Shown here: positions 8,399-24,060 of the stretch, one piece after another
How the letters are laid out: each line of letters opens with the position of its first letter
Numbering within the stretch: position 1 is the first letter of the stretch
Source of the DNA: Sedimenticolaceae bacterium
GTDB lineage: Bacteria > Pseudomonadota > Gammaproteobacteria > Chromatiales > Chromatiaceae
Assembly (NCBI GenBank): GCA_050287965.1
Contig: JBNKCX010000025.1
Location: forward strand, 6,233-70,232
Length of the DNA: 64,000 nucleotides
Direction: 5' to 3'
Notes under the pieces: generated by a model
Databases searched by the model: none
The model's input: the letters and a program-made list of their open reading frames with translations, nothing else
What the model was told of the DNA's origin: nothing
Translations under genes and position numbers: made by a program

Positions 8399-9814
8399 CT
8401 AGCGCAATATATCCGAGTGTTTTCTTAGATCCTCATATATCGGGTAATAACCAACACCAAGGATGAACAATGCTGCCGCCAGAGCCAACCAGTCCCGAAG
8501 GAAATGGCCAATTGCGAGAAATGCCAAGAAGGCTATCATTACGGTTCCGATAGATCGCACTACCGCTGCGTCCATCCTGTACCGTAGTTTCCGTTTCAAC
8601 ATGACGATCAGAAATACAACAGCAACGCCAAGGGCGGCAGCAATACCTACTATGGCTCCGGATACGCCCAGGTACGCGGTAAACAGCGGCACACAGAGCA
8701 TAAGGAAAAAGCCTCCAATGACTGAAATAACAAGGGCGTGTTTATAGAATCCATGGGCGATAAATACCTTTGTTCCTGCCACATATATTGTCAAAGGAGT
8801 GAGCAGCCAGAGTACCTTTCCCAGCAGCCTACCGGTTTGTGCGAATTCCTCCCCGAATAGCGCTGGTACCAACCAGGGCCCAACGACCGCCCCCACCATG
8901 CCGCCGACCGCACCTGCAATAATTGCCAGGTGAATCATCGCATTCATAAACAACATATCTCTCTCATCCCCACGCCCGACCGACCTGCTGAGGGCCGGCA
9001 AGGAGGCGCGAACCACCGCTTGTGGTACCGCGCACGCCAATATGTAGAGCTGCATGGCCAGCGCGAATTGCCCAAGCTGAAGCTGGTCTTCAACCGTATG
9101 CCGGAACAACACCACCGGACCCTGCTGTATCCAACCGGACAGCAGAACCAGCCAATAAAGACTGGCCAACTGCAAGACACCTTCCGGAAGAGAAAAGGGC
9201 TGCCACGGGAACTTCACCAGACGCTTTCTTACCATAGTCATTGCCCAGGATGCCTGTGCTGCCCAGACAAGCGCGTGCAGCGCCGCTAAGGTGATAATTC
9301 CTTCGCCCGCTGCCAGTAAGATAATGCCGATAAGCACTTCGGCGGGACGAAACATTAGGTTTTGATACAGGACGTATTGCGCTCGCTCATAGGCTATAAA
9401 CATGCCATCCGCCCACCCCGCCATAGCGCGCGCGGCGAGCGCCAGAGATAGAATGAACAGAAGACTGCGAATGGACGCATCATCATTGGCAATCCATCCG
9501 ACTATCGCGCATACGATTGCCGCCGCCGCGCTCAACAATGTCTGCAGACTGCAGGCTCGTGATACCAGTTGTTCCGGATGTCCCGATTGGCGCGGGATTT
9601 CCCTCCCCAATAGATTGCCGATCGCACCGGCTCCGGCCAATGGAAGAAATGCAAGATACCAGTGGTGACCATATGCAAAAACACCATATATCTCAGGGCC
9701 AAGAAAGCGTGCCAACACAACCATATAGAGTCCGCGCAATACATGGGTTACCGCGTCCCCACCGAGCAGATTCGCGGAATTAGCAAGTACTGAGCGTATC
9801 CCATTCAGCTTCAT
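8399..9814 (-). CDS. Polysaccharide flippase (MOP/Wzx-like)
   Basis: 471 aa, hydrophobic throughout (12-14 helices), N-terminal region Wzx-like. Sits in an EPS operon. Confidence 0.65.
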   Translation of the reverse strand: MKLNGIRSVLANSANLLGGDAVTHVLRGLYMVVLARFLGPEIYGVFAYGHHWYLAFLPLAGAGAIGNLLGREIPRQSGHPEQLVSRACSLQTLLSAAAAIVCAIVGWIANDDASIRSLLFILSLALAARAMAGWADGMFIAYERAQYVLYQNLMFRPAEVLIGIILLAAGEGIITLAALHALVWAAQASWAMTMVRKRLVKFPWQPFSLPEGVLQLASLYWLVLLSGWIQQGPVVLFRHTVEDQLQLGQFALAMQLYILACAVPQAVVRASLPALSRSVGRGDERDMLFMNAMIHLAIIAGAVGGMVGAVVGPWLVPALFGEEFAQTGRLLGKVLWLLTPLTIYVAGTKVFIAHGFYKHALVISVIGGFFLMLCVPLFTAYLGVSGAIVGIAAALGVAVVFLIVMLKRKLRYRMDAAVVRSIGTVMIAFLAFLAIGHFLRDWLALAAALFILGVGYYPIYEDLRKHSDILR

Positions 9815-9840
9815 GACCTTCGCTCCGGCACGGCACTCTC

Positions 9841-10992
9841 TCAGCAGTTGCTGCCCTGCCGTCGGTCGGCGATTCTACATATTTCGGGCGATACTTCTGC
9901 AATCATTTCCAGCTTCGCTTCAAGATCCGGAATGCTTACCGGCACGTCAAAATGCTCCCTTACCCATTTCTTGGCCGCTTCCCCCATATTTTTTCTAAGC
10001 TCCGTCTCCTCCAGCAGCGTACAGATCGCGTCCGCCAGCATCCCCGAATCCCCTCGTGGTACCAACAACCCGGTCCTGCCATCGTCTATGATGTCCGAAG
10101 GCCCTGTGGGGCAATCGGTCGATACCACGGGAATACCCAAGGCCTGTGCTTCCAGAAGAACATTGGGCGTACCTTCATAGTCACTCGACATAAGACATAA
10201 ATCCGCCGCAGCCAACGCCGGATATGGATTCGCTGAGAATCCGGGCATATACACCGAGTCTCTCACACCCAACTCCTGAACCCGCTCCTCCAGCAATCGC
10301 CTTAACGGCCCTTCGCCCAATATGAGCAACGATACCCGATGTTTGATTCGCACCTTTGCGAAGGCATCCAATAACACGTCGTATCTCTTCGCATCACAAA
10401 GCCGCCCTATAGCCACCAGCGACGCTCGCATCGCACCCGCATTATCAGTTTCATCAGCCGCCTGACAGGTAACGCGCTCAACGTCGATCGCTTTATACCA
10501 TACGAGCACTCTTTCCGGATCGATAAATGGATAGGTCTCCAGGAAAATCGCACCTAAACGGTCACAGGAGGTCAAAAAATAATCAAATACGCGATAACTC
10601 CTCCTCGCCCAGGGCTGTCTCCAGCCCGGCTCATATGCCGGGTTACTGGCAATCATGGCAATACACTTCGGCCTTCTTTCCATACCACGTATTGCTTCAG
10701 CACTCAGTAGCGCGGGATTAAGGGCGCTAGTCACCAACAAATCCGGCTGAATCTCGTTAATCAGATTACGCAGCGTTCTGATTCCTTTAAATATCTTTAT
10801 CTTTCGGTCTATACCAAGTTCGTATGTTGCAATTTCTTTCGGCAACGCGAAAACTATATCCATCCTATGGAGTACAAGATGCACATCGAATCTGCGTCTA
10901 TCGAGATGCCAGATAATATTATTGATTTTGCGTTCTGCACCACCACTTGACATATCGTGGGTGACAAACATAACGCGGACAGGTGTTTTCAT
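9841..10992 (-). CDS. Glycosyltransferase family 4
   Basis: 383 aa. Signature EGTPNVLLEAQALGIPVVSTDCPTGPSD (E-x7-like motif). Confidence 0.8.
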   Translation of the reverse strand: MKTPVRVMFVTHDMSSGGAERKINNIIWHLDRRRFDVHLVLHRMDIVFALPKEIATYELGIDRKIKIFKGIRTLRNLINEIQPDLLVTSALNPALLSAEAIRGMERRPKCIAMIASNPAYEPGWRQPWARRSYRVFDYFLTSCDRLGAIFLETYPFIDPERVLVWYKAIDVERVTCQAADETDNAGAMRASLVAIGRLCDAKRYDVLLDAFAKVRIKHRVSLLILGEGPLRRLLEERVQELGVRDSVYMPGFSANPYPALAAADLCLMSSDYEGTPNVLLEAQALGIPVVSTDCPTGPSDIIDDGRTGLLVPRGDSGMLADAICTLLEETELRKNMGEAAKKWVREHFDVPVSIPDLEAKLEMIAEVSPEICRIADRRQGSNC

Positions 10993-11058
10993 ATGGACAA
11001 GTATTCTTCCGCCTGGCGGATACCTTTGAGTACATTTTGAACAAGCTGAACTAGCATA

Positions 11059-12186
11059 TCAGTTCAATAAGCAGGAAATAAGAGATTCCCAGGTCATATT
11101 CTTTTTATACTCCTGTATTTCCGCGCTCATACTCTCCGCCCTTGCACGTGTCATCGTATTGATCGCTTCAGCCAGATCATCAGCATCACCCGCGTTCACC
11201 AACAGCCCGGTTCTGCGGTCCTGTACAACATCCGGCAATCCACCGACCCGCGTTGCGATAACGGGCTTATTATAATGATATGCCAAAGACACAACGCCGC
11301 TTCCGGTCGCGTTGAGATACGGCAATATCACTACGTCCGCTCTTGCAAACAGTGCTGCCGCTTCTTCCTCTGAATGATATCCGGGGCGCACCTCAACCTG
11401 ATCCTCTATATCCAGCCGCTCAATATGCTCGCGTACTTCCTCTTCGCCCCCCCAGAACTCCCCGGCGACGGTAAGTTGAACATCGCTCCCTTTCAACTTC
11501 CCCATGGCCTTTATCAATATATCCAGCCCTTTGTACGGTCTTACGAAACCAAAAAAAAGCAGCTCCAGTCCCTTCCTTCTAGGCAATGTATGCTTCGGGG
11601 CCGGAAACTGATCATAGATCGGATGAGGGTGTACCACCACGTCCGCCATCGGCAGGGACTTTTTAAGGTTCTGCTCATCCGCTTTCGTATGCACCAGAAA
11701 GCGTGTGCCAAGCTTCAATACCTTGAAGGTGAGAAAGGACTTCCATCCTGCTGTTTCATGTTCCGTCACATTGTGACACAAAAATACCACCTCTATCTCC
11801 GATCGTCTTAATCGGCGTACCAGATACCCATAGCAAGGGACCCAGAATACCGTCCACCATGGAATCACGACCACGGTTGCTCCGTACTCTGTTATGCGCC
11901 TTGCGGTTTTCCGCCAGGTGAGCGGATTCAAAGAATCGATCAAATACTCCACGCCCGGCTCCCGGTGATGCCTGTACTCAGGATCTACATCGCTTTCTCC
12001 CGGGAATAACCAGATCGGATATTGACGCGTAAATGAGATGGTTAAATGCGCAACAGCTCCGGACATTGCCCGATGCAGCTTGGTGGTATGCTGCGCGATA
12101 CCCCCTCTGAACGGGAGTACCGGCCCGATCAGGACAACACGTTTGTCAGGATTTCCCGACATCTCCGGATTTTTTAGAAGCTTCAC
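11059..12186 (-). CDS. Glycosyltransferase family 4
   Basis: 375 aa. Motif TGSGVVSLAYHYNKPVIATRVGGLPDVV in a GT-B C-terminal domain. The 5' end overlaps the upstream GT2 gene, so the true start may be the internal ATG at 12162. Confidence 0.7.
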   Translation of the reverse strand: MKLLKNPEMSGNPDKRVVLIGPVLPFRGGIAQHTTKLHRAMSGAVAHLTISFTRQYPIWLFPGESDVDPEYRHHREPGVEYLIDSLNPLTWRKTARRITEYGATVVVIPWWTVFWVPCYGYLVRRLRRSEIEVVFLCHNVTEHETAGWKSFLTFKVLKLGTRFLVHTKADEQNLKKSLPMADVVVHPHPIYDQFPAPKHTLPRRKGLELLFFGFVRPYKGLDILIKAMGKLKGSDVQLTVAGEFWGGEEEVREHIERLDIEDQVEVRPGYHSEEEAAALFARADVVILPYLNATGSGVVSLAYHYNKPVIATRVGGLPDVVQDRRTGLLVNAGDADDLAEAINTMTRARAESMSAEIQEYKKNMTWESLISCLLN

Positions 12187-13117
12187 TCATCTCTATTCTT
12201 TTTACCCTTTCCAGAGTCTTTTCCAGAAGTTGTCTATTGAATGATATAAGGTCCGCCACCAGCCCAATCATGAATGTTATAAAACCTATAATTAAAAGAA
12301 CTCCGCCCAACAGCAATGATTGGATATGCCCTCCACCTGAGCCTGATAAGTAAAAATACAGGAATCGCATAATTGGTATGAGTCCCACCAGCGTCAACGC
12401 TGTTCCTGTATAGAAAAATACCTTGAGCGGCTGATACATCGAGTACATGCGAATAATTGTCGTAACCTGCCGCTCGATGAATCTCGGAACATTTCTGTAT
12501 AAGCGGGATTCGCGTGTCTTCGGATTTGTTCTCACGGGGACGGAGGTAACAGCCATATCCCGCTTTCCGGCCTGAATCAGCATCTCAATCGTATAGCTGA
12601 AAGGGGAAACAATATTCAGGCGTATGGCCGCATCTCTCGATATCGCTCGAAATCCGCTTACCGCATCCGGCACCCGGACACCGGAAAGTTTGCGCACAAC
12701 CCCACTCCCGAACCGCTGCATAAATTTTTTCCATTTCGAGAAATGCTCAATCTTGTCCGTTTGCCGATCTCCAACCACAATATCCGCAACTCCGTCCATT
12801 ACCGGCCTGATAAGTTTTGGAATATCCTGACCCGCATACTGATTATCACCATCGGTATTTACAATAATATCCGCTCCCGCCTCCAGACAAGCTTCCAGTC
12901 CTTTTTGGAACGTTCGCGCAAGCCCGTGATTTTCCTTATTCCTAATAATATGCTCGATACCCAATTCCTTCGCTACTTTAACTGTATTGTCGGTACTCCC
13001 ATCGTCAATAATAAGGATCTCAACATCGACTCCGGGAATATCACGTGGGATATCCGCAACCGTTGCCGGAAGAGTAAGTTCTTCGTTTAAGCAGGGAATT
13101 TGTACGATAAGTTTCAT
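12146..13117 (-). CDS. Glycosyltransferase family 2 with C-terminal TM helices
   Basis: 323 aa. N-terminal IPCLNEE...LIIDDGSTDNT...NTDGDNQY (DxD) GT-A signature, plus two C-terminal hydrophobic helices. Confidence 0.8.
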   Translation of the reverse strand: MKLIVQIPCLNEELTLPATVADIPRDIPGVDVEILIIDDGSTDNTVKVAKELGIEHIIRNKENHGLARTFQKGLEACLEAGADIIVNTDGDNQYAGQDIPKLIRPVMDGVADIVVGDRQTDKIEHFSKWKKFMQRFGSGVVRKLSGVRVPDAVSGFRAISRDAAIRLNIVSPFSYTIEMLIQAGKRDMAVTSVPVRTNPKTRESRLYRNVPRFIERQVTTIIRMYSMYQPLKVFFYTGTALTLVGLIPIMRFLYFYLSGSGGGHIQSLLLGGVLLIIGFITFMIGLVADLISFNRQLLEKTLERVKRIEMSEASKKSGDVGKS

Positions 13118-13163
13118 TTTCTATTCTTCTTATCTTCTCATGAGGCAGGATCGTTGGAGACAA

Positions 13164-14375
13164 CTATTCAACACTGCCGGTCAGCCTTCCATATACTTCT
13201 TGGTATTTTGATACGCTTGTCCGCCAGTTGCGTTCCTCCTCCACATATTTCCTTCCGTTCGCTTTCAACGCTTGCCAGCGACTCCTGTCATTGATCATTT
13301 CCACCGCCTTATTTGCAAGGGACTCCCGCGATCCCGCGGTAAACAGACATCCATTCTCACCGTCTCTTATCAATTCCTTGTGACCACCCACATCTGATGC
13401 AAGCACAAGTTTACCCTGGGCCATCGCCTCCAGGGGCTTTAACGGGGTTACCAGATCAGTCAGTCGCATATTCAGACGCGGATAAACAAAAATATCCACC
13501 AGACTATAATAGCGGCCAACCTCGCTGTGCGGCACTCTTCCCGTGAACAATACCTTATCCTGCAGATTCAACTGTCCAACCAACTCTTTTAGCAAGCTCT
13601 CCTGGGGGCCGCCGCCTACAAGCAGCAACCGGGTTTCCGGTAGCTGCTCCAAAATCTCCGGCAGGGCCTGCACCATTAGCGCGAGCCCCTCATAGGCATA
13701 AAATGATCCGATAAACCCCAGTACTGATTTGCCATCCAGACCCAGCCTCGCTTCCAGTTCCGAATACCTGGCCGGATCAAACTGGAAATTATCGATATCC
13801 ACCGCATTCGGAATAATGGTCACTTTATCGGCAGAGATACCACGGCCTATAATCTCCTGCCGTAAACCCTCGCAGATAGTCGTAACCGCATCCGCTTTTC
13901 GAAAGACATGAGTTTCCAGTGCACGCGTAATGCGATAACGTATTCCCCACTCCCTGCTTGTTCCGTGATCCACGGCGGCATCCTCCCAGAACGCCCTGCA
14001 CTCGTAAACTACTGGAATATGGTGCATTTTTCCCGCTTTCAGTGCAGCCAGCCCGTTCAGGCTCGGGGAGTGCGCGTGCAGGATATCCGGCCGTTCCTGA
14101 TTAATGATCTTATCCAGGCGCCGGGCCAGTGAGGTCACCACACCGAACTGATTCAGAACCGGAATCCTCTCGATAATCCCGCCGGAGGAATGTGTCCTGT
14201 AAAAATGCAGCCCATCCACGGTCTCCTCCTCAGGAGATTCAGCCACGTGTTTGGTGCTGGTCACATGGGTCGTTTCCCAGCCCAATTTGCGCTGCTGTTC
14301 GAGGATGGCGCGGGTTCGAAAGGTATAACCACTATGGAGAGGAATGGAGTGGTCGAGAATGTGGAGGATTTTCAC
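13164..14375 (-). CDS. Glycosyltransferase family 4 (exosortase-locus associated type)
   Basis: 403 aa with a GTG start. N-terminal MKILHILDHSIPLHSGYTFR and motif TPLKPLEAMAQGKLVLASDVGGHKE. Confidence 0.8.
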   Translation of the reverse strand: MKILHILDHSIPLHSGYTFRTRAILEQQRKLGWETTHVTSTKHVAESPEEETVDGLHFYRTHSSGGIIERIPVLNQFGVVTSLARRLDKIINQERPDILHAHSPSLNGLAALKAGKMHHIPVVYECRAFWEDAAVDHGTSREWGIRYRITRALETHVFRKADAVTTICEGLRQEIIGRGISADKVTIIPNAVDIDNFQFDPARYSELEARLGLDGKSVLGFIGSFYAYEGLALMVQALPEILEQLPETRLLLVGGGPQESLLKELVGQLNLQDKVLFTGRVPHSEVGRYYSLVDIFVYPRLNMRLTDLVTPLKPLEAMAQGKLVLASDVGGHKELIRDGENGCLFTAGSRESLANKAVEMINDRSRWQALKANGRKYVEEERNWRTSVSKYQEVYGRLTGSVE

Positions 14376-14380
14376 GGGTA

Positions 14381-14429
14381 GTTGTCAGTTGTCAGTTGTC
14401 AGTTGTCAGTTGTCAGTTGTCAGTTGATA
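14381..14429. repeat. Tandem heptamer array (GTTGTCA) x6 plus one degenerate unit
   Basis: Counted directly from the sequence. The complement is (TGACAAC)n, a rotation of ACTGACA. It supplies the last codons and the TGA of the four-helix-bundle ORF. Confidence 0.95.
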
Positions 14430-14778
14430 GTTTTATCGATTTAATTAGGCCTGACAGCATCCGTTTTAATTCTTCTAGCTTTCTATTCAACTCATCGAAT
14501 TTTGACGAGGGTATCCACCCGAGGTCTCTTGCAAGAAGCAGATGATATTCGGTTTCGCTAGCTGATCCGAATGAAATCCGGAGAAAACGAATCATTTCCT
14601 TCTCCCCACCACGCCCGCATCCCTCTGCAATATTTGTCGGTATTGACGCACATGATCGACGTAACTGACTAATTAATCCATATCTCTCTTCATCTGGAAA
14701 TACGTTCGTCAATTTATATACATCAAGTGTAAGATTATGCCCTTTGTTCCACACTGATAGTTTTTTGAAGTCTTGCAT
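14413..14778 (-). CDS. Four-helix-bundle protein (23S rRNA intervening-sequence protein / Avd family)
   Basis: 121 aa. FKKLSVWNKGHNLTLDVYKLT...FPDEERYGLISQLRRSCASIPTNIAEG...YHLLLARDLG matches the family pattern from memory. AAGGA lies 11 nt upstream of the ATG. Confidence 0.75.
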   Translation of the reverse strand: MQDFKKLSVWNKGHNLTLDVYKLTNVFPDEERYGLISQLRRSCASIPTNIAEGCGRGGEKEMIRFLRISFGSASETEYHLLLARDLGWIPSSKFDELNRKLEELKRMLSGLIKSIKLSTDN

Positions 14779-14864
14779 CCTTGCATAGTCCTTTTCGGTT
14801 GTTCGCTTACAGAAGCCCGCCTATATATTTCAGATTATAAGTAATCGCTCTTAGTGACTAATTC

Positions 14865-14962
14865 ACTGATAACTGATAACTGATAACTGATGACTGATAA
14901 CTGATAACTGATAACTGATAACTGATAACTGATAACTGATGACTGATGACTGATGACTGATG
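14865..14962. repeat. Tandem heptamer array (ACTGATA/ACTGATG) x14
   Basis: Counted directly: 9 ACTGATA and 5 ACTGATG units. It ends 5 nt before the TAA of the asnB-like gene. The unit is a rotation of TAACTGA. Confidence 0.95.
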
Positions 14963-14966
14963 ACTA

Positions 14967-16850
14967 TTAACCCTTAATAAACTCCCCAAACATCAATAAC
15001 GTCCACATGGCCGCACTATGGTCCCACCTTCCGGACTGATGCTGGTTGACCAGAGTCTCCAGATATGCCGGTTTGAAAAGACCTGTATCCATCATTGCAC
15101 TACCAAGGATATTGTCCCTAACCTTCTCCCGCAGGGGACCACGGAACCAGGTGGCCAGGGGGACCGAGAACCCCATTTTTGGGCGGTAGAGAATCTCTTT
15201 CGGCAGCTTCTGTTCCAGCGCCTTCTTGAAGATATATTTTCCCTCCCGCCCCTTCAGTTTCAGCTCCGGCGGTAAACCTGAGATCCAGTCAACCACCTCA
15301 TGATCGAGGATAGGGACCCGGACCTCCAGAGCGTGCGCCATACTGGCCCGATCAACCTTGGTAAGAATATCACCCGCAAGATATGTCTTGAAATCCAGAT
15401 ACTGAACCAGCGATTGAGGATGATTTGTCGGAGCCTGCCGCGCATAGTGCCGGAACACCTCTATGGCCCGGTATCCCTGAAGATCCCGCTTCAATCCGGT
15501 GCTGAACAGGGAGTCACGCATTTCGTTGGAAAGAACGGAAACGCTGTGCAGATAACCCTCCAAAGAGTCTCGGGCCATGGACTGCAGAGTGCTTTTGGCG
15601 CGGAACACCTTGGGCGCCCAATCGGCCTTTGGGTATACGCTGCCCAGAAATCCGAACAGGGGGCGCCTGATAACGGCCGGCACCAGAGAACGCATCTTTT
15701 CCTCATAGGTATGCCAGCGATAACGGCGGTAGCCCGCCAGGTTCTCGTCCCCTCCGTCTCCCGACAGCACCACCGTAACCTGTTTCTTCGCCAATTCGCA
15801 TACCCGATAGGTCGGGAGAGCCGAGCTGTCGGCGTAGGGCTCGTCATACAAACCGGCGAGACGATCGATCAGCGCGAAATCATCCGGGTCAACCTGCTCC
15901 ACCCGATGTGCGGTCCGATATCTATCGGCCACCATGGCGGCATATGCGGACTCGTTGAATTTAGGATCGCCGAACGAAATGGAACAGGTATTAACCGGGT
16001 CATCCGAAATACCAGCCATCAGGGCCACCACGGCGCTTGAATCCACCCCTCCGGAGAGGAACGCCCCCAAAGGCACCTCCGCGATCATACGGATCTTTAC
16101 CGCCTCTCGCAGCCTGGATATGAGCTCTTCCCCGGCTTCTGTCTCGCTCATGGGCGCATGCGGCCGAAAAGCGACATCCCAGTACTGCTCAGGTCTCAGC
16201 TCCCGTTGACCGCGCTTAACGGCCAACCGGAAACCCGGCGGCAATTTATATACTCCTTTGTAGATAGTTTTTGGATCGGGGACATAGCCGAATGCAAAAT
16301 AGTCCTCCACCGCGGTAGAATCTATCTCCCGCGGCAGCCTGTCATGAACCTTCAGGGACTTCAACTCCGAACCAAACAGCAGGGTACCATCCGGAAGCAT
16401 GGCGTAATAAAGCGGCTTGATCCCCAGCCTGTCGCGAGCCAGAAACAGGGTATCCCTGTTGCGGTCCCAGATACCAAAGGCAAACATGCCACGGAACCTC
16501 TCCACACAGGCCTCTCCCCACTCTTCCCAGGCGTGGACTATCACCTCCGTATCGCAATGGGTGCGAAACTGATGGCCATGCGCCTTTAGCTCCTCGGAAA
16601 GTTCAGGAAAGTTATAAATCTCACCGTTATAGGTTACTACCACGGACCCGTCTTCATTGAACAGCGGCTGTTGCCCGCTGGAGATATCGATTATGGAGAG
16701 ACGGCGATGACCGAACCCTAAACCCGGCTCCGTATGCAAACCGCCCTCATCCGGTCCGCGATGGAACTGGGTTTCATTCATCCGCGACAGGAGATCACGG
16801 GAGATTTCCCGTTTACCTGTTGTATCAAAGATTCCGACTATGCCGCACAT
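14967..16850 (-). CDS. Asparagine synthase (glutamine-hydrolysing)-like amidotransferase, exosortase-locus type
   Basis: 627 aa. N-terminal MCGIVG (Ntn Cys2) and PP-loop SGGVDSS. Confidence 0.85.
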   Translation of the reverse strand: MCGIVGIFDTTGKREISRDLLSRMNETQFHRGPDEGGLHTEPGLGFGHRRLSIIDISSGQQPLFNEDGSVVVTYNGEIYNFPELSEELKAHGHQFRTHCDTEVIVHAWEEWGEACVERFRGMFAFGIWDRNRDTLFLARDRLGIKPLYYAMLPDGTLLFGSELKSLKVHDRLPREIDSTAVEDYFAFGYVPDPKTIYKGVYKLPPGFRLAVKRGQRELRPEQYWDVAFRPHAPMSETEAGEELISRLREAVKIRMIAEVPLGAFLSGGVDSSAVVALMAGISDDPVNTCSISFGDPKFNESAYAAMVADRYRTAHRVEQVDPDDFALIDRLAGLYDEPYADSSALPTYRVCELAKKQVTVVLSGDGGDENLAGYRRYRWHTYEEKMRSLVPAVIRRPLFGFLGSVYPKADWAPKVFRAKSTLQSMARDSLEGYLHSVSVLSNEMRDSLFSTGLKRDLQGYRAIEVFRHYARQAPTNHPQSLVQYLDFKTYLAGDILTKVDRASMAHALEVRVPILDHEVVDWISGLPPELKLKGREGKYIFKKALEQKLPKEILYRPKMGFSVPLATWFRGPLREKVRDNILGSAMMDTGLFKPAYLETLVNQHQSGRWDHSAAMWTLLMFGEFIKG

Positions 16851-16860
16851 TGTTAGTTCG

Positions 16861-16957
16861 AAGTTATAAGTTTGAAGTTATAAGTTTGAAGTTTGAAGTT
16901 TGAAGTTTGGGGAGAAGCATAAATTCCGAATAGCCATTATCTACAAACTTCATACTT
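16861..16957. repeat. Heptamer hairpin element: (AAGTTTG/AAGTTAT) x7, 34-nt centre, inverted (CAAACTT CATACTT)
   Basis: Counted directly. It fills the gap between the asnB-like start (16850) and the stop of the upstream GT (16958). Confidence 0.9.
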
Positions 16958-18124
16958 CTAACCTCCAACCAGCCCATCATACACCGATATATACTGCTCC
17001 ACTGTTCTGTCCCAATTGAACTGCGATCTTACTTTTCCCAATCCGGCCTCACCCATGGTCTTTACCAATTCCCGATCGCTGACAAACTCCTGTAGACAGG
17101 CGGTTATTGAGGCCGGGTTTTCTTTCGGAACCAGCCGGCCGTTTACACCGTCTTCCACCAATTCCGGGTTTCCGCCGACATCGGTGGCGATAACGGGGAG
17201 CCCCGTCGCCATCGCCTCCAGCAGGGTATTGGATATACCCTCCCCGAGAGACGGCAAGACAAAAACATCAAAAAGCCTTAACAACTCGGAGATATCGTTC
17301 CTTTCACCCGCCATCCAGACATACTCCGCCAAACCCCATCGCAAAATCAGCTCCTCCAGCTGCCTGCGCATGGGACCCTCTCCTGCAATAATCAGTCTGA
17401 AATCCCGCCTGTTCCCCGGATTTTGATCCAACAGTCCCTTAAAAGCACTGATGAGGGTCGCTTGGTCCTTAACCGCCGCCAACCTACCTACGGTACCGAT
17501 CACAAACGGCTTTTCCGACAGAAACCCGGCAGGAGCGATATCCGGTGTCACGCCGTCCTTCGGCCTGAACAGATCCTGATCAACCCCGTTATAGATCTGG
17601 ATCACCTTATCTTGAGCCACACCTACCGTCTTTAACAACCAGTACTGCAGATCCCTGCTGACCGCAACATATCGATCGACAAAAAGACTCACAGCCTTCC
17701 TGAGCAGGTTATATTTCCTGTTTTTACCTTCAATATCAAAGACATCCCTACCATGCTCGCCATGCACCGTGCTCGCACCCGACAAAAACCAGGCCGGAAT
17801 CTGGGCCTCCAGGGCGGCCAGATTTCTGGTATGTACGATTGTCGGATTCAGGGTTTTTAGGACCTTCCACAGCTTCCAATACAACCTGAAGCTATGTCCT
17901 GCTTCGCTATGCAATGAAATTAGTGGTACGCCGGGCCTTGCGATACGTTTTGCAAACTCACCCGCCTCCGTCAGGCAGATGATGGCATGCCGGTACCGCT
18001 CGTCCGGCATGTGGTTAATGATATTAACCAACCCGTTCTCCAGCCCTCCGGTTCCCAGACTGTATATAACATGCACCACCAACGGTATTTCGGTATCCGG
18101 CTTCATGGCTCTACCGGCAACCAT
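16958..18124 (-). CDS. Glycosyltransferase family 4 (PEP-CTERM/exosortase-associated sugar transferase type)
   Basis: 388 aa. Motif EGISNTLLEAMATGLPVIATDVGGNPELV. Confidence 0.8.
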   Translation of the reverse strand: MVAGRAMKPDTEIPLVVHVIYSLGTGGLENGLVNIINHMPDERYRHAIICLTEAGEFAKRIARPGVPLISLHSEAGHSFRLYWKLWKVLKTLNPTIVHTRNLAALEAQIPAWFLSGASTVHGEHGRDVFDIEGKNRKYNLLRKAVSLFVDRYVAVSRDLQYWLLKTVGVAQDKVIQIYNGVDQDLFRPKDGVTPDIAPAGFLSEKPFVIGTVGRLAAVKDQATLISAFKGLLDQNPGNRRDFRLIIAGEGPMRRQLEELILRWGLAEYVWMAGERNDISELLRLFDVFVLPSLGEGISNTLLEAMATGLPVIATDVGGNPELVEDGVNGRLVPKENPASITACLQEFVSDRELVKTMGEAGLGKVRSQFNWDRTVEQYISVYDGLVGG

Positions 18125-19308
18125 TGATCGAGTTTCGGTAACGTGTTGTCCCAGGTATATGACCCGCAGATCAGGTTCCTCGCTTCGGAACCCAATTCCT
18201 CCCAGTCGCCTGCAAATATGGACATTGTCTTCTCTACAAAACTGGATATATCGGATGCCACCAGGACTTCCTTTCCGTCTTCCGCGTCGATACCTTCCAG
18301 ACCCTGCGGTGTCACCACGGTCGGCCTGCCCATGGCCATACCTTCCAGCACCTTGTTCTGTATCCCACGTGCGATACGCATCGGCGCCACTACCACTTCT
18401 GCGTGTCGTATGTAGGGCCGCACATCGTCAACCCGGCCGGTAACCACTATCCCCGGTTGCTGCTGCAACTTACATACACTCTCCGCGGGATTGCCGCCCA
18501 CAATATAAAACCGCGCCTCCGGCTCATCTTTCAGGATCTCCGGAAAGATCTCCTGTCCGAACCATCTTACCGCGTCCACATTCGGCCAGTAATCCATAGC
18601 CCCGGTAAACACCAACGCCCTTTCACCCATAACATACGGATATTTATGGTTTTTACCTGGATCAAAGTAATCTACATCAACGCCGTTGCTATAGTAGTCG
18701 ATCTTTTCTCCGGGATTCCCGGAAATCCGTTGGAACAGCTCCGCCTCCGCTGACGAAACAAACAGGCTGGCGTCAAAGCTCGACGCCACCTTCTTTTCAA
18801 ACTCGAACAGATGGTCCGCTTCACGCCGGTAAATCCGGCTCATAGGCCAGCCTTTCTTTTCCGCATACTGACGCCACTTATCCGAGTCGATATCTACGAA
18901 ATCTATTACCCTATTCCTGAACCCGAGGTCTGACCCCAGAACATACTGAGCCATTGCGGAGGAATAGACCATACACAGCTTGATGTCTTTATCCCTGACC
19001 CGGCTTCTTATCCACCGGTCCAGATCACCGTTGTAATAATAAGGTATGGACAAGGGCTTTCCGGATAGCAGGCCGGAGACACTCTTGATTCGCGCCAGTT
19101 GCGGATTTAGGTCTACAAAACAACACTCCTGGCACAATTCTTCAACCTTGGATGTATATCTCCAATCAGATGGTTCATCTATGAACGTCCCAAGAAAAAC
19201 ACTGTATCTTTCTGCAAGATAGCGCAGTAGATTGTACGATCTTATCTTGTCACCCTTGTTCGGTGGATAGGGTATACGGTGACAAAGGAAAAGCAGCGCG
19301 GGTTTCAT
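18103..19308 (-). CDS. Glycosyltransferase, GT-B (PEP-CTERM/exosortase-associated sugar transferase type)
   Basis: 401 aa. Motif ARGIQNKVLEGMAMGRPTVVTPQGLEG. Overlaps the downstream GT by 22 nt. Confidence 0.7.
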   Translation of the reverse strand: MKPALLFLCHRIPYPPNKGDKIRSYNLLRYLAERYSVFLGTFIDEPSDWRYTSKVEELCQECCFVDLNPQLARIKSVSGLLSGKPLSIPYYYNGDLDRWIRSRVRDKDIKLCMVYSSAMAQYVLGSDLGFRNRVIDFVDIDSDKWRQYAEKKGWPMSRIYRREADHLFEFEKKVASSFDASLFVSSAEAELFQRISGNPGEKIDYYSNGVDVDYFDPGKNHKYPYVMGERALVFTGAMDYWPNVDAVRWFGQEIFPEILKDEPEARFYIVGGNPAESVCKLQQQPGIVVTGRVDDVRPYIRHAEVVVAPMRIARGIQNKVLEGMAMGRPTVVTPQGLEGIDAEDGKEVLVASDISSFVEKTMSIFAGDWEELGSEARNLICGSYTWDNTLPKLDQWLPVEP

Positions 19309-19339
19309 TTTCGGGCGTCAGCGATCCGGATGGCTCTTC

Positions 19340-20395
19340 TCAACCCAGGTTTCTGGACAGCAGGGGTCCAATCAGGTTGGCTACGGGCAGCGGAAGTCTC
19401 TTCCAGGCGTTGATGAATAATTGATACTTCGGATTCATCGGATTTATCTCCGGGATCTTATCCGATTTCACCAGATAATATTCATAATGCAGGGGTTCCG
19501 GCGTAAATCCCCAGTTTTTCTTGAAGCTGTATGAGCCCGTACCAGTCTTGCTGCGGCCATAGTCAAAGATCTTTATCCCCTGCTCCGCCGATCTCCGCAT
19601 CAACTCCCAGTACATAAAATCGTTGGCCTTGAGAGAACGCGCCTGCGCAATACTGCCGCCATAAAACGGCAATACCTCATCCCTGAAATAAAAACTCAGA
19701 ACACCCGCCACATCCCTGCCTTCATGTTTGATCATCAGGACGTCGCAATCCGAACCGAAGACCTCCCGCAGGATCCGGAAATACCTGGCCGGGAAAACGG
19801 GTGTTCCCAGGTTCCGAACGCTCTCGGAATAAACCCGATACAGGCGTTGCCAGCCGTTGTCTGCTTCACCAGTCAATCCCGCGTTAATCCCCTTGCGTAC
19901 CATTGCCCGCTGTTTGCGGGGAATCGCTTTCAGATTGACATCCGGGTCGGGATCCATCTCTTTGCGGAAGGTGACATAGAGTTCCTTGGCGGGCCATTGC
20001 CGTCCGGTGGGCGTACGGTTCCTCAGCTCAAGAGCATCCACACCCAATCGTTCGGCATGCTCACAGGCGGCGTTCAGCAAAGCAGATGCCGCATCCTCGC
20101 TGGTTGCCGCCACTCCCCCATATACACAAAACGGTGTTGAAACCAGTGTGTTTCCAAAAAGAAGACTATTTATTTGGGCCAGAGGTAAAACCCCCTCTAT
20201 CCCGCCATCACCCTCGGCATATAGAAAAAGGGTGGGATGACTATAAGCACGCTCGAGAACGGTCTTCCAGCCTGCTTTGTGGAAAAAGGTGGCATCGGGG
20301 CAATGTTCTACAAATTCATTCCAACGATCTTCGTCGGCTGATGTCAGTTCTCGGATCTTCAAACTTCTGTTCCTGTTTCTATCCTTGATCGGCAA
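19340..20395 (-). CDS. FemAB-like/GNAT-fold acyltransferase, PEP-CTERM-locus type
   Basis: 351 aa. Lies immediately downstream of the deacetylase, as in exosortase A loci. Sequence features (FFHKAGWKTVLE...YGGS...FKKNWGF) are consistent with the FemAB family. Confidence 0.6.
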   Translation of the reverse strand: MPIKDRNRNRSLKIRELTSADEDRWNEFVEHCPDATFFHKAGWKTVLERAYSHPTLFLYAEGDGGIEGVLPLAQINSLLFGNTLVSTPFCVYGGVAATSEDAASALLNAACEHAERLGVDALELRNRTPTGRQWPAKELYVTFRKEMDPDPDVNLKAIPRKQRAMVRKGINAGLTGEADNGWQRLYRVYSESVRNLGTPVFPARYFRILREVFGSDCDVLMIKHEGRDVAGVLSFYFRDEVLPFYGGSIAQARSLKANDFMYWELMRRSAEQGIKIFDYGRSKTGTGSYSFKKNWGFTPEPLHYEYYLVKSDKIPEINPMNPKYQLFINAWKRLPLPVANLIGPLLSRNLG

Positions 20396-21249
20396 TGGAG
20401 GTCATTATCCACTTCATTTTCCAGAAATATCCTGTCCATCCTGTTCCAGCTAAAATCCCGGAACAAACGCTCCAGCCGCCCCTGCATTCGATGGAGATTC
20501 AGATAATGGCGGAATCGGGTTTTCATACCAACACCCTTCTGCCTTGGTTGATCCTTATCGATCTCCCATGGGTGAAAATAAAAAATACCGGGCTGCCCGT
20601 CCACTGAATTCACCCGCCGGAGAAGTTTGCGGGAGATCCTATAGGGTAACAGACGAAAATAACCACCGCCCCCACCCGGATAATTCCTTCCCCCGAATGC
20701 GACAGTGGTAATCGGGATCTCAAGAAAGCCGTCCCCCTCTATGGGCTTGTAAGGAAACCGGGGGGCGGAAGGCATACCGTAATGATCATGGCGTATGGGG
20801 TATATGCTGGAGCTATAGAAGTACCCGGCCTCAAGTAGTTTTTCATGAGCCCAGAGGTTGTTTTCGCCGATGGAGTAACTGGCTGCTCTATAACCCTTTA
20901 CCCTGACGGCCCCGATATCTTCCAATATATCTTTTGTCCTGGTTATATCCTGTCGAAACTCCTCGGGGGTCTGGTTGCTTACCCGGATATGCTGATAGCC
21001 ATGGCTGGCCAACTCATGTCCGTTCTCCACAATGGAACGCACAATCTTTGGATATCTCTCCCCCAGCCAACCGAGCATAAAGAATGTCGCCTTGATATCG
21101 CGCTCATTCAACATATCCAGAATACGATCCATATTACCCTCCAGTCGGCAGGGTATATTCTCCCAACCGGAACGGGGTATATGCCTTTCGAAGGCCGACA
21201 CCTGGAAGTAGTCTTCCACGTCGATGGTCATGGCGTTCTGGATGGTCAT
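20359..21249 (-). CDS. Polysaccharide deacetylase (NodB-like), PEP-CTERM-locus subfamily
   Basis: 296 aa. N-terminal MTIDVEDYFQVSAF and HELASHGYQH motifs. Confidence 0.75.
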   Translation of the reverse strand: MTIQNAMTIDVEDYFQVSAFERHIPRSGWENIPCRLEGNMDRILDMLNERDIKATFFMLGWLGERYPKIVRSIVENGHELASHGYQHIRVSNQTPEEFRQDITRTKDILEDIGAVRVKGYRAASYSIGENNLWAHEKLLEAGYFYSSSIYPIRHDHYGMPSAPRFPYKPIEGDGFLEIPITTVAFGGRNYPGGGGGYFRLLPYRISRKLLRRVNSVDGQPGIFYFHPWEIDKDQPRQKGVGMKTRFRHYLNLHRMQGRLERLFRDFSWNRMDRIFLENEVDNDLHCRSRIETGTEV

Positions 21250-21306
21250 ATCTCTCTAAATCACTCTATACTGCGGGGAATCCCGACCGTAACGGCAGGA
21301 CCGCTC

Positions 21307-22446
21307 CTATTCCTCCGCCCACGCCTTGATGACGCCCGCAATACGCTCCGCCGCCTTGCCGTCCCACAGTTCCGGTATCCTGCCGCTCTTGCCATCCGTG
21401 GTCAGAATATCCTCCACGGTGGTTCGTATTTTATTCGTATCCGTACCGACGATGGTATTGGTTCCCTGTTCGACGGTGATGGGTCTCTCGGTATTTTCTC
21501 TCATAGTGACACAGGGAACACCCAAAGCCGTGGTCTCCTCCTGTATGCCTCCGGAGTCGGTAAGCACCAATCGGGCCTTTTTCATCAGGCCCAGCATTTC
21601 CAGATACCCCACGGGCGGCAATATCAAAATTGTCTCACTCGCCAGAAATTCTTCCAGTCCCGCCTCATGAATACATTTCCTTGTCCTGGGATGTACCGGA
21701 AAAATTAAAGGTATTTTCCCGCTTATCTCCCGCAACACGTTCAGCAGACTCTTAAGAGTAGCCGGGTCGTCCACGTTGGAGGGGCGATGCAGGGTTACTA
21801 ATCCATACCCGGACGAATATCCGGAAATACGGTCACTTGCCTGATGAGTGGAAAATATCTGTTCCAGGGGGACTGCGCGCTCCATATTGTAGAAAAGTGT
21901 ATCGATCATCACGTTTCCCACAAAATGTATACGCCGCTCATCCACGCCCTCACGCAAAAGATTCCCTTGGGCGCTTCTCTCTGTTGTAAAAAGCAGCTCC
22001 GAGATCTGATCGGTCAGAACCCTGTTGATCTCCTCCGGCATATCGCGGTCGAAACTGCGCAACCCGGCTTCCACGTGAAAAACCGGAATACCCTTTTTTA
22101 CCGCTACCAGAGCACAGGCAATGGTGGAATTAACATCCCCTACCACCAGGATCGCGTCAGGCCGCCGTTCATCGAGAACCGGTTCGAAGCGCCGCATAAT
22201 CTCGGCGGTCTGTACGGCATGTGAGGCGGAACCCACTTCCAGGTCGATATCCGGTTCCGGAATATTCAACTGCGCAAAAAAAGAGGCCTTCATGGCCGCA
22301 TCATAATGTTGGCCGGTGTGTATCAGGCTGGCTGATAGTTCCGGACCGGCCGCATTCAATGCCCTCATGACAGGTGCGATTTTCATGAAGTTGGGACGCG
22401 CCCCGACCACGCACAGAATCTGAGCGGCGGACTGTTTAGATGCCAT
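21307..22446 (-). CDS. wecB: UDP-N-acetylglucosamine 2-epimerase (non-hydrolysing)
   Basis: 379 aa. Motifs VVGARPNFMK, HVEAGLRSFD and LTDSGGIQEE. Confidence 0.9.
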   Translation of the reverse strand: MASKQSAAQILCVVGARPNFMKIAPVMRALNAAGPELSASLIHTGQHYDAAMKASFFAQLNIPEPDIDLEVGSASHAVQTAEIMRRFEPVLDERRPDAILVVGDVNSTIACALVAVKKGIPVFHVEAGLRSFDRDMPEEINRVLTDQISELLFTTERSAQGNLLREGVDERRIHFVGNVMIDTLFYNMERAVPLEQIFSTHQASDRISGYSSGYGLVTLHRPSNVDDPATLKSLLNVLREISGKIPLIFPVHPRTRKCIHEAGLEEFLASETILILPPVGYLEMLGLMKKARLVLTDSGGIQEETTALGVPCVTMRENTERPITVEQGTNTIVGTDTNKIRTTVEDILTTDGKSGRIPELWDGKAAERIAGVIKAWAEE

Positions 22447-22632
22447 TTCCGCGTTCCTTCGGGAGGTGCATAATGATTTTCATTGCAACAGAAGCGAGAA
22501 GTACTGGGACTGTCTTTCGTATTCTACAAAATCAATCTACTATTTTCGCCGAGTTCAGAATCTCGCAAATATAAATGCAGGCACATTACTTTCACGAAAG
22601 ACTAATAAAACAGAGACAAAAACGCCGCCGGA

Positions 22633-24060
22633 CTAGAGATCTATATCCAAAGCCACCGTCACCCGATTCTCGTCATAGCTGTCACCAGCCGTGTCCGAAT
22701 CCCTCTCCGTATGGCGATAATCCAATCGAAGGTTGCTTTTCTGACCCAGTTCCCGCGCCATCCCTACCTTGAATGAGGTGGTATCCGCCTGGCTACCGTC
22801 GCTCATCTCCGAGCGACGCCAACTGATATCAGTGTTCGCGCTGGTCTTCCCATCCAACCGCCGGTCAAGAGCAATGCTCAGACCCATAAGTTTGGATCCG
22901 CTATCGTTCACATCCTGATAGATCTGCTTGGAGTGATCAGCCCGTAACTTCAGGGTAGTCCGCTTCCCCTTAAGGGTATATGAGGCATCGAACCGCTCAT
23001 TTACCAAAGTGACGTCATTGATCACCGCCACATCCCGCGCGATGATAAAAGGATTCCCGGTAATGGGATCAACCACCACGTTACCAAACTCATCCACCAG
23101 AAAATACAATTCCTGATCCATTATGAGAGAACGGGAATCGGTCAGCTCTCTGGAATAACCCGCTTCAAACGTGGATTTGCGGGACCGATGAGTGAAATCA
23201 AAGGAGGGTGTGGAACCGAAGTAGCGTTCGCCGTAGCCTATATCCAATGAGGTTCGCGGACTCGGGGTCCAAACCAATCCGGCATCCCAGCGGGCACCGC
23301 CCGTATCGGATCGTGTCGTCGTATAATCATTCCACTCCTTCCCCACTGACGCCCTGGCCATAATGGAGTGATCAAACCTGTAACCAAAATTCGCATCCGC
23401 GGATTTATAGTCGCTGTTGTCACTCTTCTGGGCATCAACCTTCCTGTAATCGCCATTTAATCCCCAGGAGAAGCTTTTAAATTTCCTGCCACTGTCCAAT
23501 GATACCGCGACGGACTGGCCGGTACTGTCTCCGGCCTGATCGCTGGTGTGGAATAGCTGATCGTAGGTATAACGGGCCTCAAAATCAGCGTAGCCCTTCA
23601 GCCGCCGTTTTATATAGGGGCTGACGGAATAGGAATAGGTGGTGGTGACGTTCCCGCTATCATTGGTCGTATCGTCGCCGCCGGAGGTATAGGGATTCAA
23701 GGCGTACTGTGAAGCCCGGGCTTTGGCATCGACATAAAACAGGTCTTCCACAAGCTCCGCGTCCGCATCAGCCTGAATGCGGGGATTGATGGAATCGTTT
23801 CCCCTGCCCTGGTCGTCGATCTTCACGGAGCCGGTAAATTTGACGCTCGCCCTGGCGCCTTTACCCGTAAAGGAAAGTTTGGGAGATGCGGAGGCGATAA
23901 CTTCACTTTGTTTTCCGCCTTCGGTCAAATGGTCATTATCGGTTATGGTCAGGCTGGTAGCCACACCCTTGGTTACCGACCATTCAGCCGCAGAGGAAAT
24001 CCCAGGCAACAGCGCTATTCCACACAACAGTATGAGCGAGCTGTTTTTCACCGTGTCCAT
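22633..24060 (-). CDS. Outer-membrane beta-barrel protein, PEP-CTERM-system associated
   Basis: 475 aa with a signal peptide (ALLPGISSA-AEW). Alternating-polarity, Y/G/D/S/T-rich sequence is typical of a beta-barrel. Position follows the tyrosine kinase gene. Confidence 0.55.
   Translation of the reverse strand: MDTVKNSSLILLCGIALLPGISSAAEWSVTKGVATSLTITDNDHLTEGGKQSEVIASASPKLSFTGKGARASVKFTGSVKIDDQGRGNDSINPRIQADADAELVEDLFYVDAKARASQYALNPYTSGGDDTTNDSGNVTTTYSYSVSPYIKRRLKGYADFEARYTYDQLFHTSDQAGDSTGQSVAVSLDSGRKFKSFSWGLNGDYRKVDAQKSDNSDYKSADANFGYRFDHSIMARASVGKEWNDYTTTRSDTGGARWDAGLVWTPSPRTSLDIGYGERYFGSTPSFDFTHRSRKSTFEAGYSRELTDSRSLIMDQELYFLVDEFGNVVVDPITGNPFIIARDVAVINDVTLVNERFDASYTLKGKRTTLKLRADHSKQIYQDVNDSGSKLMGLSIALDRRLDGKTSANTDISWRRSEMSDGSQADTTSFKVGMARELGQKSNLRLDYRHTERDSDTAGDSYDENRVTVALDIDL

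Follow-up and report, generated by a model that had tools for sequence, protein, structure and literature searches.

The 64,000-nt stretch of DNA analyzed here (hereafter, the window) belongs to contig JBNKCX010000025.1 of a Sedimenticolaceae bacterium (assembly GCA_050287965.1, positions 6,233 to 70,232 of the forward strand) and carries an XrtA-type exopolysaccharide (EPS) cluster on one strand, from about 27474 to 8399. In this cluster, the spacer between the amidotransferase gene asnB and the glycosyltransferase gene stp3 (14376–14966, 591 nt) is filled entirely by one cassette on the operon (minus) strand, where a gene of the 23S rRNA intervening sequence (IVS) protein family, encoding a four-helix-bundle (4HB) protein, stands between two inverted arrays of tandem heptamers. 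Read in the operon sense, the cassette is composed of 14.4 TATCAGT/CATCAGT heptamers, a leader, a 121-aa open reading frame (ORF) and 6.7 CAACTGA heptamers, arranged between its host genes as follows.

14967–16850, minus strand: upstream host gene, XrtA/PEP-CTERM amidotransferase (asnB; TIGR03108, 1098 bits)
14865–14966, minus strand: 5′ arm, TATCAGT or CATCAGT on the minus strand, ACTGATA or ACTGATG on the plus strand
14779–14864, minus strand: leader from the 5′ arm to the ATG, 86 nt, including TATAAT at 14834–14839
14413–14778, minus strand: 4HB gene, 121 aa (PF05635 23S_rRNA_IVP / TIGR02436)
14377–14432, minus strand: 3′ arm, 6.7 CAACTGA units and one degenerate unit (GTTGTCA on the plus strand)
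13164–14375, minus strand: downstream host gene, stp3 XrtA-system glycosyltransferase (TIGR04063)

The cassette in the asnB–stp3 spacer

An original prediction, made by a model from the DNA letters and their ORFs, had described these arrays, the ORF and the flanking genes, all of which were borne out by Tandem Repeats Finder and by the ORF calls. The repeat finder reported one array at 14380–14426 (period 7, 6.7 copies, 100% match, unit AGTTGTC) and another at 14865–14965 (period 7, 14.4 copies, 96% match, unit ACTGATA). The 5′ arm begins 0–1 nt past the amidotransferase stop codon (TAA, 14967–14969), and at most 4 nt, with no Shine–Dalgarno sequence among them, separate the end of the 3′ arm from the GTG start of stp3 (14373–14375), whose product begins with the same MKILHILDHS as its orthologue in locus L014, discussed below. 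The sequence also agrees with the earlier claim that the ORF borrows from the array: its last six codons (K L S T D N) and its TGA come from the 3′ arm. Since the units of this arm carry TGA/TAA and seven is not a multiple of three, the arm provides stops in all three frames. Base composition sets the 4HB ORF (GC 40%, third-position GC 36%) apart from the flanking genes (GC 53–55%, third-position GC 58–64%). Rfam identified no known RNA family at the cassette or at the other arrays of the window, and no rRNA anywhere in the window, so that the location inside rRNA that marks an IVS is not found here; neither an intrinsic terminator at the cassette nor a U-run after the 3′ arm was detected.

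The TATAAT hexamer of the leader had been proposed as a promoter. The hexamer is present, yet the window contains 17 copies against 19.1 expected by chance, no −35 element accompanies it and the promoter scan did not list it; it was therefore rejected as a promoter. In most homologous cassettes the 5′ arm lies 6–30 nt from the ATG, which leaves no room for a promoter, and on this spacing the 4HB gene appears to depend on host transcription. The start context of the leader (...GCAAGG-ATGCAAGA) is common to the nearest homologues, in loci L167, L168 and L170.

The assignment of the protein to its family was confirmed by profile searches, with PF05635 matched over positions 1–106 of 106 (E 4.5e-39; 133.4 bits, curated cut-off 33.8) and the 'four helix bundle protein' model TIGR02436 matched at E 1.4e-39 (134.7 bits, curated cut-off 24). 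The AlphaFold model consists of four helices (pLDDT 94.5), and Foldseek aligned it with XCC0516 (2gsc; TM 0.87–0.96, root-mean-square deviation about 1 Å), which phmmer also matched (E 9e-21), with BT_0352 (2rld; TM 0.79–0.88) and, more distantly, with the Bordetella phage Avd protein (4dwl; TM 0.77/0.87, 7–9% identity), in keeping with the Avd-like fold that had been suggested. Residues G34, Q38, R41, N49, E52 and G53 are invariant in our protein alignment A3, the conserved G..R...S...N..E motif is present, and dN/dS lies between 0.11 and 0.24, indicating by sequence comparison a functional protein under purifying selection. The median pI of the 4HB proteins is about 9, and they have no known catalytic residues. 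An exact-sequence look-up of the 121-aa protein returned no record, the window contains no second 4HB gene, and a defence-system reading of the gene was rejected, as PADLOC gave no defence-system family at E ≤0.01. With 23,081 clusters at 50% identity (E ≤0.001), the 4HB family is a large one, and annotation pipelines name the gene "S23 ribosomal protein"; papers on the family were found from the early 1990s onward, and a 2024 preprint still calls the domain functionally uncharacterised.

Comparison with related operons points to an insertion. Scanning for the amidotransferase in one genome per species gave 80 loci, the best matches being 78–79% identical (Sedimenticola, Chromatiaceae). The stp3 gene lies downstream in the same orientation in 41 of them, separated by at most 103 nt in 30 of the 41 and by 11–57 nt in the five best matches, and none of these short gaps contains arrays. 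Against these empty sites, the cassette is very probably an insertion relative to most relatives and not an ancestral operon member. A 4HB gene was found in 1 of the 80 related loci, L014 from a gammaproteobacterial metagenome-assembled genome, which is also the sole locus with heptamer arrays beside such a gene. There, the gene occupies the same junction in the same orientation, behind a strong AAGGAGG; TTAGCGA units followed by CAGCTAA-type units precede it, and sixteen CGCTAAC units downstream supply its stop codon and end 5 nt before the ATG of stp3. The closest protein homologues (70–74% identical) lie on short metagenome contigs with an operon of this type. In L170, an amidotransferase 81% identical to that of the window ends in TAG and is followed by 26 GCAGTDR units, a leader of about 80 nt, the 4HB gene and CTGCCCA units; in L167, the gene lies behind an amidotransferase C-terminus with arms TCAGTNN and AACTGA, and in L168 and L169 behind a stp2-like glycosyltransferase with arms TTAGCAG/TTTTCAG and CAACTGC. 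On four contigs besides the window (L014, L167, L168 and L170), this type of operon carries a 4HB cassette with other, yet complementary, heptamers. The loci speak for a cassette common to a sub-lineage, whose arms changed together and are still complementary.

Separately, seven relatives (L007, L013, L018, L063, L072, L074 and L077) have about 1 kb of inserted sequence in this junction, and the one insert that was checked (L013, 7947–8882) codes for a Methyltransf_23-domain protein; the junction thus takes different extra genes in different lineages.

Heptamer-flanked 4HB genes in other genomes

The association of 4HB genes with heptamer arrays extends well beyond this operon. A metagenome protein scan provided 80 loci with homologues of 50–64% identity, in which 49 arrays of period 7, and none of period 5, 6, 8, 9, 10 or 11, lay within 150 nt of the homologue. 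Period-7 arrays reached 1.94 per kb within 150 nt of 4HB genes versus 0.068 per kb elsewhere on the same contigs, an enrichment of about 28-fold. Adding the window, L014 and ten further loci to the 80 metagenome loci gave an enlarged set of 92, of which 73 have at least 150 nt on each side. Among these 73, an array was detected in 41 and one on each side in 23, by a conservative detector that left mixed-unit inverted arms among the 'array-less' loci (L081, L097, L138). Upstream arrays carried TCAG or TTAG (TYAG) in 29 of 31 cases and downstream arrays CTGA or CTAA (CTRA) in 27 of 36, so that the downstream arrays place a stop codon in every frame. Within a locus, the two arms were complementary at a mean of 5.76 of 7 positions versus 4.61 (sd 0.18) for re-paired arms, a value that none of 5000 permutations reached, and the three variable positions alone matched at 2.43 of 3 versus 1.53. 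In 65 of 74 loci the 4HB gene runs in the direction of the gene upstream of it, and its GC content is below that of the host contig in 59 of 59. Contigs end within 100 nt of the gene in 16 of the 92 loci, which fits assemblies breaking at arrays. With a conserved 23S probe, no 23S rRNA was found in the metagenome loci.

In five loci (L086, L091, L096, L122 and L128; alignment A2), the 4HB genes are 80–94% identical at the nucleotide level, and the homology runs from the 5′ array to the 3′ array while the flanks beyond are unrelated. Near-identical cassettes of this kind, with homology that ends in the arrays, agree with the 'mobile unit' raised in the original prediction. A second group (L117, L119, L144 and L145) shares an orthologous site, with 4HB genes 88–95% identical, upstream genes roughly 70% identical and array copy numbers that differ by multiples of seven. 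These four loci also share a conserved segment of about 70 nt after the 3′ array (…ACTCAAGTGGTTACATTGAT..TTCAATGCAACCGACGGGGACGGAGTG; L117 at about 1390–1460, alignment A1 columns 690–750), which holds an imperfect palindrome (GGTTACATTGA / TCAATGCAACC) and is more conserved than the sequence further downstream.

In named genomes, a tblastn search of plasmids matched 22 records, 21 of them cyanobacterial, and the flanks of 14 of the 22 were read. Short tandem repeats with inverted-complement units lay on both sides of the gene in 13 of these 14, the exception being L165; in L161, the ORF has direct arrays beside it and the inverted pair stands upstream. The settings include the following.

Nostoc edaphicum: between two ribonucleotide reductase genes, arms GGGAGTA / TACTCCC
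Calothrix brevissima: behind an integrase gene, arms GGGTGTA / TACACCC
Aulosira, Nostoc C052 and N. punctiforme: between hypothetical genes, arms TCAGGAG / CTCCTGA
Anabaena sp. 90: between cas6 and cas4, arms GGTGACA / TGTCACC
Picosynechococcus: between cmr2 and cmr3, arms GGAGATA / TATCTCC
Pseudanabaena: between cas6 and cas4, sixteen AAAGCTA units with an inverted pair upstream

Cassettes within CRISPR-cas operons thus occur on three cyanobacterial plasmids (L161, L166 and L177). The 4HB family had been noted inside cas operons before and was read as a sign of possible cas-associated functions (PMC3936711); the flanking arrays suggest instead that these genes are cassette insertions.

The sole non-cyanobacterial plasmid match, on AZO_p2 of Azospirillum lipoferum 4B, connects the operon-borne cassettes with rRNA. 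Its ORF lies inside the large-subunit rRNA (Rfam LSU_rRNA_bacteria, 896 bits across the locus), between left units CAGAGGA/CGGATGA/CAGAGGA/CGGAGGA and right units TCCGTCC/TCTGTCT/TCTGTCA/TCCGTCT whose predicted pairing extends over about 38 bp (−253.8 kcal/mol, z −8.5). This locus is a genuine 23S rRNA IVS with a 4HB ORF between inverted heptamer arms, a finding that favors the earlier description of the window's element as 'IVS-like'. Judged by this shared organization, the cassette is the same kind of element as an ORF-bearing rRNA IVS, here residing in an mRNA. ORF-bearing 23S rRNA IVSs are known from Leptospira and, with S23p, from Coxiella burnetii. In C. burnetii, the S23p ATG stands behind three or four GACAGAT heptamers, depending on the strain, the 5′ RNase III cut falls at the first heptamer repeat, and the S23p ORF decays while the IVS persists (PMC4990558).

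Arm pairing and the readings of the cassette

As had been expected, the arms pair in the predicted folds of both strands and their stem closes off the ORF. On the plus strand, the minimum-free-energy fold joins them in about 50 bp of uninterrupted helix (−174.7 kcal/mol, z −5.6), and on the operon-sense strand they form segments of 5–6 bp between small internal loops (−161.3 kcal/mol, z −3.5). The pairs that close the operon-sense fold involve the final codons of the amidotransferase gene and an ACCC directly upstream of the GTG, which brings the stop and start codons of the host genes to one helix base. The asymmetry foreseen for G–U pairs, with wobble on the antisense RNA only, is real here and reflects one or two transition differences per unit; in the sense/antisense comparison across loci, transition-type mismatches occur in the consensus units of only two. 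When arm–arm energies were calculated with RNAduplex on 150-nt flanks, mismatched control pairs scored nearly as well.

We favor, with a probability of about 0.6, the reading that the spacer holds a dispersed, promoter-less hairpin cassette of the IVS type, inserted into an operon and looped out of its transcript, with the general form 5′-(TYAGNNN)n – leader – ORF – (N′N′N′CTRA)n-3′. Such a cassette would have entered a short amidotransferase–stp3 spacer in the operon orientation and would be transcribed with the operon. The arms would then pair in the polycistronic RNA and loop out the 4HB cistron, and the helix would hold the amidotransferase stop and the stp3 start at its base, restoring roughly the ancestral spacing. 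The stops of the 3′ arm in all frames, whatever its copy number, would keep translation from leaving the cassette. By analogy with rRNA IVSs and with the leader of Haemophilus influenzae hmw1A, RNase III would cut the long helix, free the 4HB mRNA and part the flanking cistrons. The parts of this proposal differ in strength. That the spacer element belongs to the class of 4HB–heptamer cassettes is highly likely and that the predicted arm hairpin forms in vivo is probable; cleavage of the stem by RNase III, suggested by the same analogies, is a tentative proposal that falls somewhat short of even odds.

Several observations weigh against this explanation. Arm pairing is a prediction, and the operon-sense helix is interrupted by an A–C mismatch or a 2-nt internal loop every 7 nt, can engage only about 47 nt of the 101-nt 5′ arm and is less favorable than the antisense fold. 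The polarity of the arms, a reverse array followed by a forward one (R...F), is identical on both strands and is not explained by pairing alone. The arms belong to the window's own repeat family, so the hairpin could predate the gene, and the cassette encodes no recombinase and shows no evident mobilisation machinery. The metagenome loci are phylogenetically non-independent, and about 30–45% of the sampled 4HB genes lack detectable arms. Arrays are mostly missing, in particular, from a group in which the 4HB gene follows a gene for a Der (EngA) GTPase or a 3-hydroxyacyl-CoA dehydrogenase and precedes one for a GMC oxidoreductase, and in other loci the arrays are direct, or an R–F pair upstream is joined by an F array downstream (L014, L122, L130, L144, L161). 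The arms are thus not obligatory, and the Der/3-hydroxyacyl-CoA dehydrogenase–GMC group suggests that a 4HB gene can become a stable resident of a locus.

That group consists of loci L103, L114, L125, L127, L129, L131, L133, L134, L138, L146 and L155; the GMC oxidoreductase gene follows the 4HB gene by 6–30 nt, and degenerate inverted arms are still present in L138. Arrays in the order R then F upstream, with F downstream, were seen in L014 (7871–7950), L118 (1–74), L141 (about 386–446) and L161 (about 1281–1500). In this arrangement, the R arm could pair with either F arm and so enclose or exclude the 4HB cistron, as a structural switch.

The heptamers themselves have relatives inside and outside the window. 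TAACTGA is an intergenic heptamer of Beggiatoaceae, Thiocystis violascens, cyanobacteria and Bacteroidetes that often lies a few nucleotides before start codons without ribosome-binding sites (MacGregor 2015, PMC4679880). The ACTGATA unit of 14865–14965 is a rotation of TAACTGA, present in at least two tandem intergenic copies; this TAACTGA-proper arm is reverse and stands just past the amidotransferase stop, and the CAACTGA arm next to the stp3 GTG is forward. Further related arrays occur at three other places of the window, all intergenic, and in other genomes, which contradicts the implication of the original prediction that the arrays are private to the cassette. The two longer ones are these.

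16855–16912, minus strand: related array AACTTCA/AACTTAT (operon sense), filling the stp2–amidotransferase spacer, with no partner arm and no ORF
39684–39812, minus strand: ORF-less inverted pair, arrays 39694–39731 and 39767–39806 around a 35-nt loop

The array at 16855–16912 stops 4 nt before the amidotransferase ATG. The ORF-less pair is built of TCAGTTG/TCAGTTT units and then CAACTGA/AAACTGA units with the polarity of the cassette and sits between a UDG-family gene (39805–40425, minus strand) and uvrC (37863–39683, minus strand). Its predicted folding energies are −56.5 kcal/mol for the minus strand (z −7.9) and −60.9 kcal/mol for the plus strand (z −8.9), with z values stronger than those of the cassette stem. 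A TATAAT (39690–39695, minus strand) lies between its array and the uvrC ATG. The third place holds a short GTTGTCA array of about 2.5 units (41192–41214), with GTTGTCAGTTGCC 15 nt away at 41229–41240, in the spacer beside a response-regulator gene (40434–41078, minus strand); folding found no stable structure at 41192–41214/41229–41240 (z −0.9 and +0.8). The heptamer AACTTCA recurs directly before the 4HB genes of plasmid gamma of Nostoc PCC 7120 and of a Stanieria plasmid (L165 1440–1500; L176 about 550–597), and is thus common to a gammaproteobacterium and cyanobacteria, echoing the exchange suggested by MacGregor.

These arrays open an alternative, in which the inverted heptamer pair is a resident intercistronic device of the host, comparable to repetitive extragenic palindromic (REP) sequences, and has taken up the 4HB gene in its loop as a passenger; such a hairpin would tune mRNA stability or translational coupling in the same way with or without the ORF. 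The pair at 39684–39812, with the same units and polarity between two unrelated genes and a stronger fold, favors this alternative, and ORF-less pairs were also found in L099, L122, L128 and L161. The unit family shared by the cassette arms and the window's other arrays, the 70–75 convergent heptamer pairs per Xanthomonas genome (PMC4692102), and the single arrays that adjoin start codons without Shine–Dalgarno sequences, as in Beggiatoaceae, point the same way. A host device would not by itself account for the roughly 28-fold density of arrays beside 4HB genes, nor for arrays that move with the gene into unrelated contexts (alignment A2). In L099, moreover, the units of the 4HB arms are unlike the other arrays of that contig, and the relatives with an asnB–stp3 gap of at most 103 nt have no arrays in it. 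We therefore regard a passenger gene as unlikely. An explanation of a different kind, in which the inverted arrangement is incidental and the arrays work as DNA, being hypermutable simple-sequence repeats or hot spots of recombination through which surface-polysaccharide genes vary in expression or are reshuffled, would suit the copy numbers that differ by multiples of seven between orthologous loci, the 16 of 92 contigs that end within 100 nt of the gene and the flanks, whose change coincides exactly with the arrays; MacGregor raised the rearrangement of genes as a possible role (PMC4679880). Incidental repeats would, however, not be expected to co-vary between arms or to keep a fixed polarity, and such arms also lie within rRNA, for which phase variation would be meaningless, leaving this explanation quite improbable.

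The protein offers a further alternative, which we consider about as improbable as the passenger gene. Here, the 4HB protein would act in trans on the arrays, much as a RAYT protein is paired with its REP sequences, and its pentameric basic bundle would bind them as DNA or RNA; the arms would serve it for autoregulation or maintenance, and the other arrays of the genome would be its targets. The lineages in which heptamer arrays are reported (Beggiatoaceae, cyanobacteria, Bacteroidetes, Xanthomonas) also appear to be rich in the 4HB family. The tight linkage of gene and arrays across phyla, the purifying selection on the protein, its median pI and the RNA and reverse transcriptase binding of its homologue Avd in the ribonucleoprotein of diversity-generating retroelements (DGRs; fold match 4dwl, 8ube) are consistent with such a partnership. 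Within clusters of 4HB sequences the heptamers also fall into common classes, TCAGAAG in one group and TTAGCTG in another, as would equally be expected from common descent of whole cassettes. Binding of the arrays by the protein is hypothetical, many 4HB genes have no arrays, and in Coxiella the ORF decays while the IVS persists. The Avd resemblance could also be taken at face value, with the gene as the Avd accessory gene of a DGR or a remnant of one. Apart from the fold match to 4dwl, this is supported by weak matches to PF22296 (E 9e-4), NF033474 (E 1e-3) and PHROG 3206 (E 6.9e-7); the scores for PF22296 (20.1 against a cut-off of 40) and NF033474 (19.3 against a cut-off of 80) fall well short, and the genes scanned from 8399 to 27474 with Pfam or NCBIfam include no reverse transcriptase, template and variable repeats not having been searched for. 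Given the sub-cut-off Avd scores and the EPS-biosynthesis neighbours without a reverse transcriptase match, we rejected the DGR reading, which we consider extremely improbable.

A wider reading, more doubtful than the hairpin cassette that we prefer, would join 4HB genes and tandem heptamer arrays (the short tandemly repeated repetitive (STRR) sequences of cyanobacteria, TAACTGA in large sulfur bacteria and the G-rich heptamers of Xanthomonas) as two halves of one system. They would form a class of non-autonomous elements colonising intercistronic spacers and rRNA loops, whose Avd-like protein would bind the heptamer hairpin and join in its processing, maintenance or spread, with reverse transcriptase or RNase III possibly supplied in trans. 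ORF-less arrays and hairpins would then be derivatives or targets of the cassette. We put this forward as speculation.

Known systems and further repeats of the window

Several known systems share parts of this organization. ORF-bearing rRNA IVSs have the same protein family, an ORF in the loop of a long terminal-inverted-repeat stem, heptamers beside the ATG (three strain-variable GACAGAT units in Coxiella, inverted heptamer arms in Azospirillum) and a dependence on host transcription; in rRNA, RNase III cuts the stem. The host in the window is, in contrast, an mRNA operon, where cleavage would part cistrons and not fragment a ribosome; its arms are far longer and differ in length (14 and 7 units), and array-flanked cassettes are under purifying selection, unlike the decaying Coxiella ORF. 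With the hmw1A leader of H. influenzae, where (ATCTTTC)n is one arm of a long hairpin in the 5′ untranslated region that is cut by RNase III (PMC12721329), the cassette shares a heptamer array of variable copy number as a hairpin arm upstream of a gene for a surface structure. It differs from hmw1A in that the other arm there is non-repeat and G-rich, the loop holds no ORF and the locus is single.

Among the heptamer repeats, the TAACTGA repeats of MacGregor have the same unit, are intergenic, adjoin starts without Shine–Dalgarno sequences, mix with related heptamers and vary by 7-nt indels. They were described as direct repeats, only one inverted repeat being reported from the Orange Guaymas (BOGUAY) genome, and S1, Csp or CsrA were proposed as binders; 4HB genes are not mentioned (PMC4679880). 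The arrays of the window, unlike these, are paired in inverted orientation around a 4HB gene. The GGGAATC heptamers of Xanthomonas were read as sequences that form G-quadruplexes, and no gene family was connected with them (Rehm 2015, PMC4692102). Cyanobacterial STRR sequences and the Xanthomonas heptamers are likewise tandem and intergenic, and the 70–75 convergent inverted pairs of each Xanthomonas genome could form stem-loops; in the plasmid loci analyzed here, by contrast, such arrays are the arms of 4HB cassettes. REP sequences, bacterial interspersed mosaic elements (BIMEs) and RAYT genes also combine dispersed intergenic palindromic repeats with one small gene between inverted copies. 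However, RAYT is an HUH nuclease with a known cutting mechanism, whereas the protein of the window has no transposase domain, and REP/BIME repeats are single palindromes and not tandem heptamers. The Avd proteins of DGRs, finally, are basic and have a homologous four-helix-bundle fold, but share 7–9% identity with the window's protein, which scores below the Avd model cut-offs.

In the open-access literature, we found no description of 4HB genes as characteristically flanked by inverted heptamer arrays and no statement that rRNA IVSs and operon-borne 4HB genes are one type of cassette. The parts, namely the 4HB family, the IVSs and the heptamer repeats, are known, and the linkage between 4HB genes and heptamers appears to be undescribed. 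Viewed as one cassette, the gene and its inverted arrays occur in mRNA operons (EPS, CRISPR-cas, ribonucleotide reductase) and in rRNA, and the cassette probably alters the coupling of expression within the operons it invades. Three puzzles, the function of the IVS protein, the meaning of heptamer repeats and the route by which IVS elements reach rRNA, are thereby joined into one question: does the protein bind its own arms, and does RNase III cut the arm helix? The heptamer linkage gives this large family an experimental handle, with culturable carriers in Nostoc PCC 7120, Anabaena sp. 90 and, for the rRNA form, Azospirillum lipoferum.

Two further features of the window lie apart from the heptamer family. 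A 27-bp tandem repeat (GGAAGAGACCCCGGCCGAAGCAGTAGC; 63333–63715, 14.2 copies, 88% match) lies inside an ORF (62985–63803, minus strand) that has no Pfam match and would encode a protein of 9-residue repeats, and three tRNA genes are clustered on the minus strand at 36661–37055 (Rfam RF00005, 58–70 bits).

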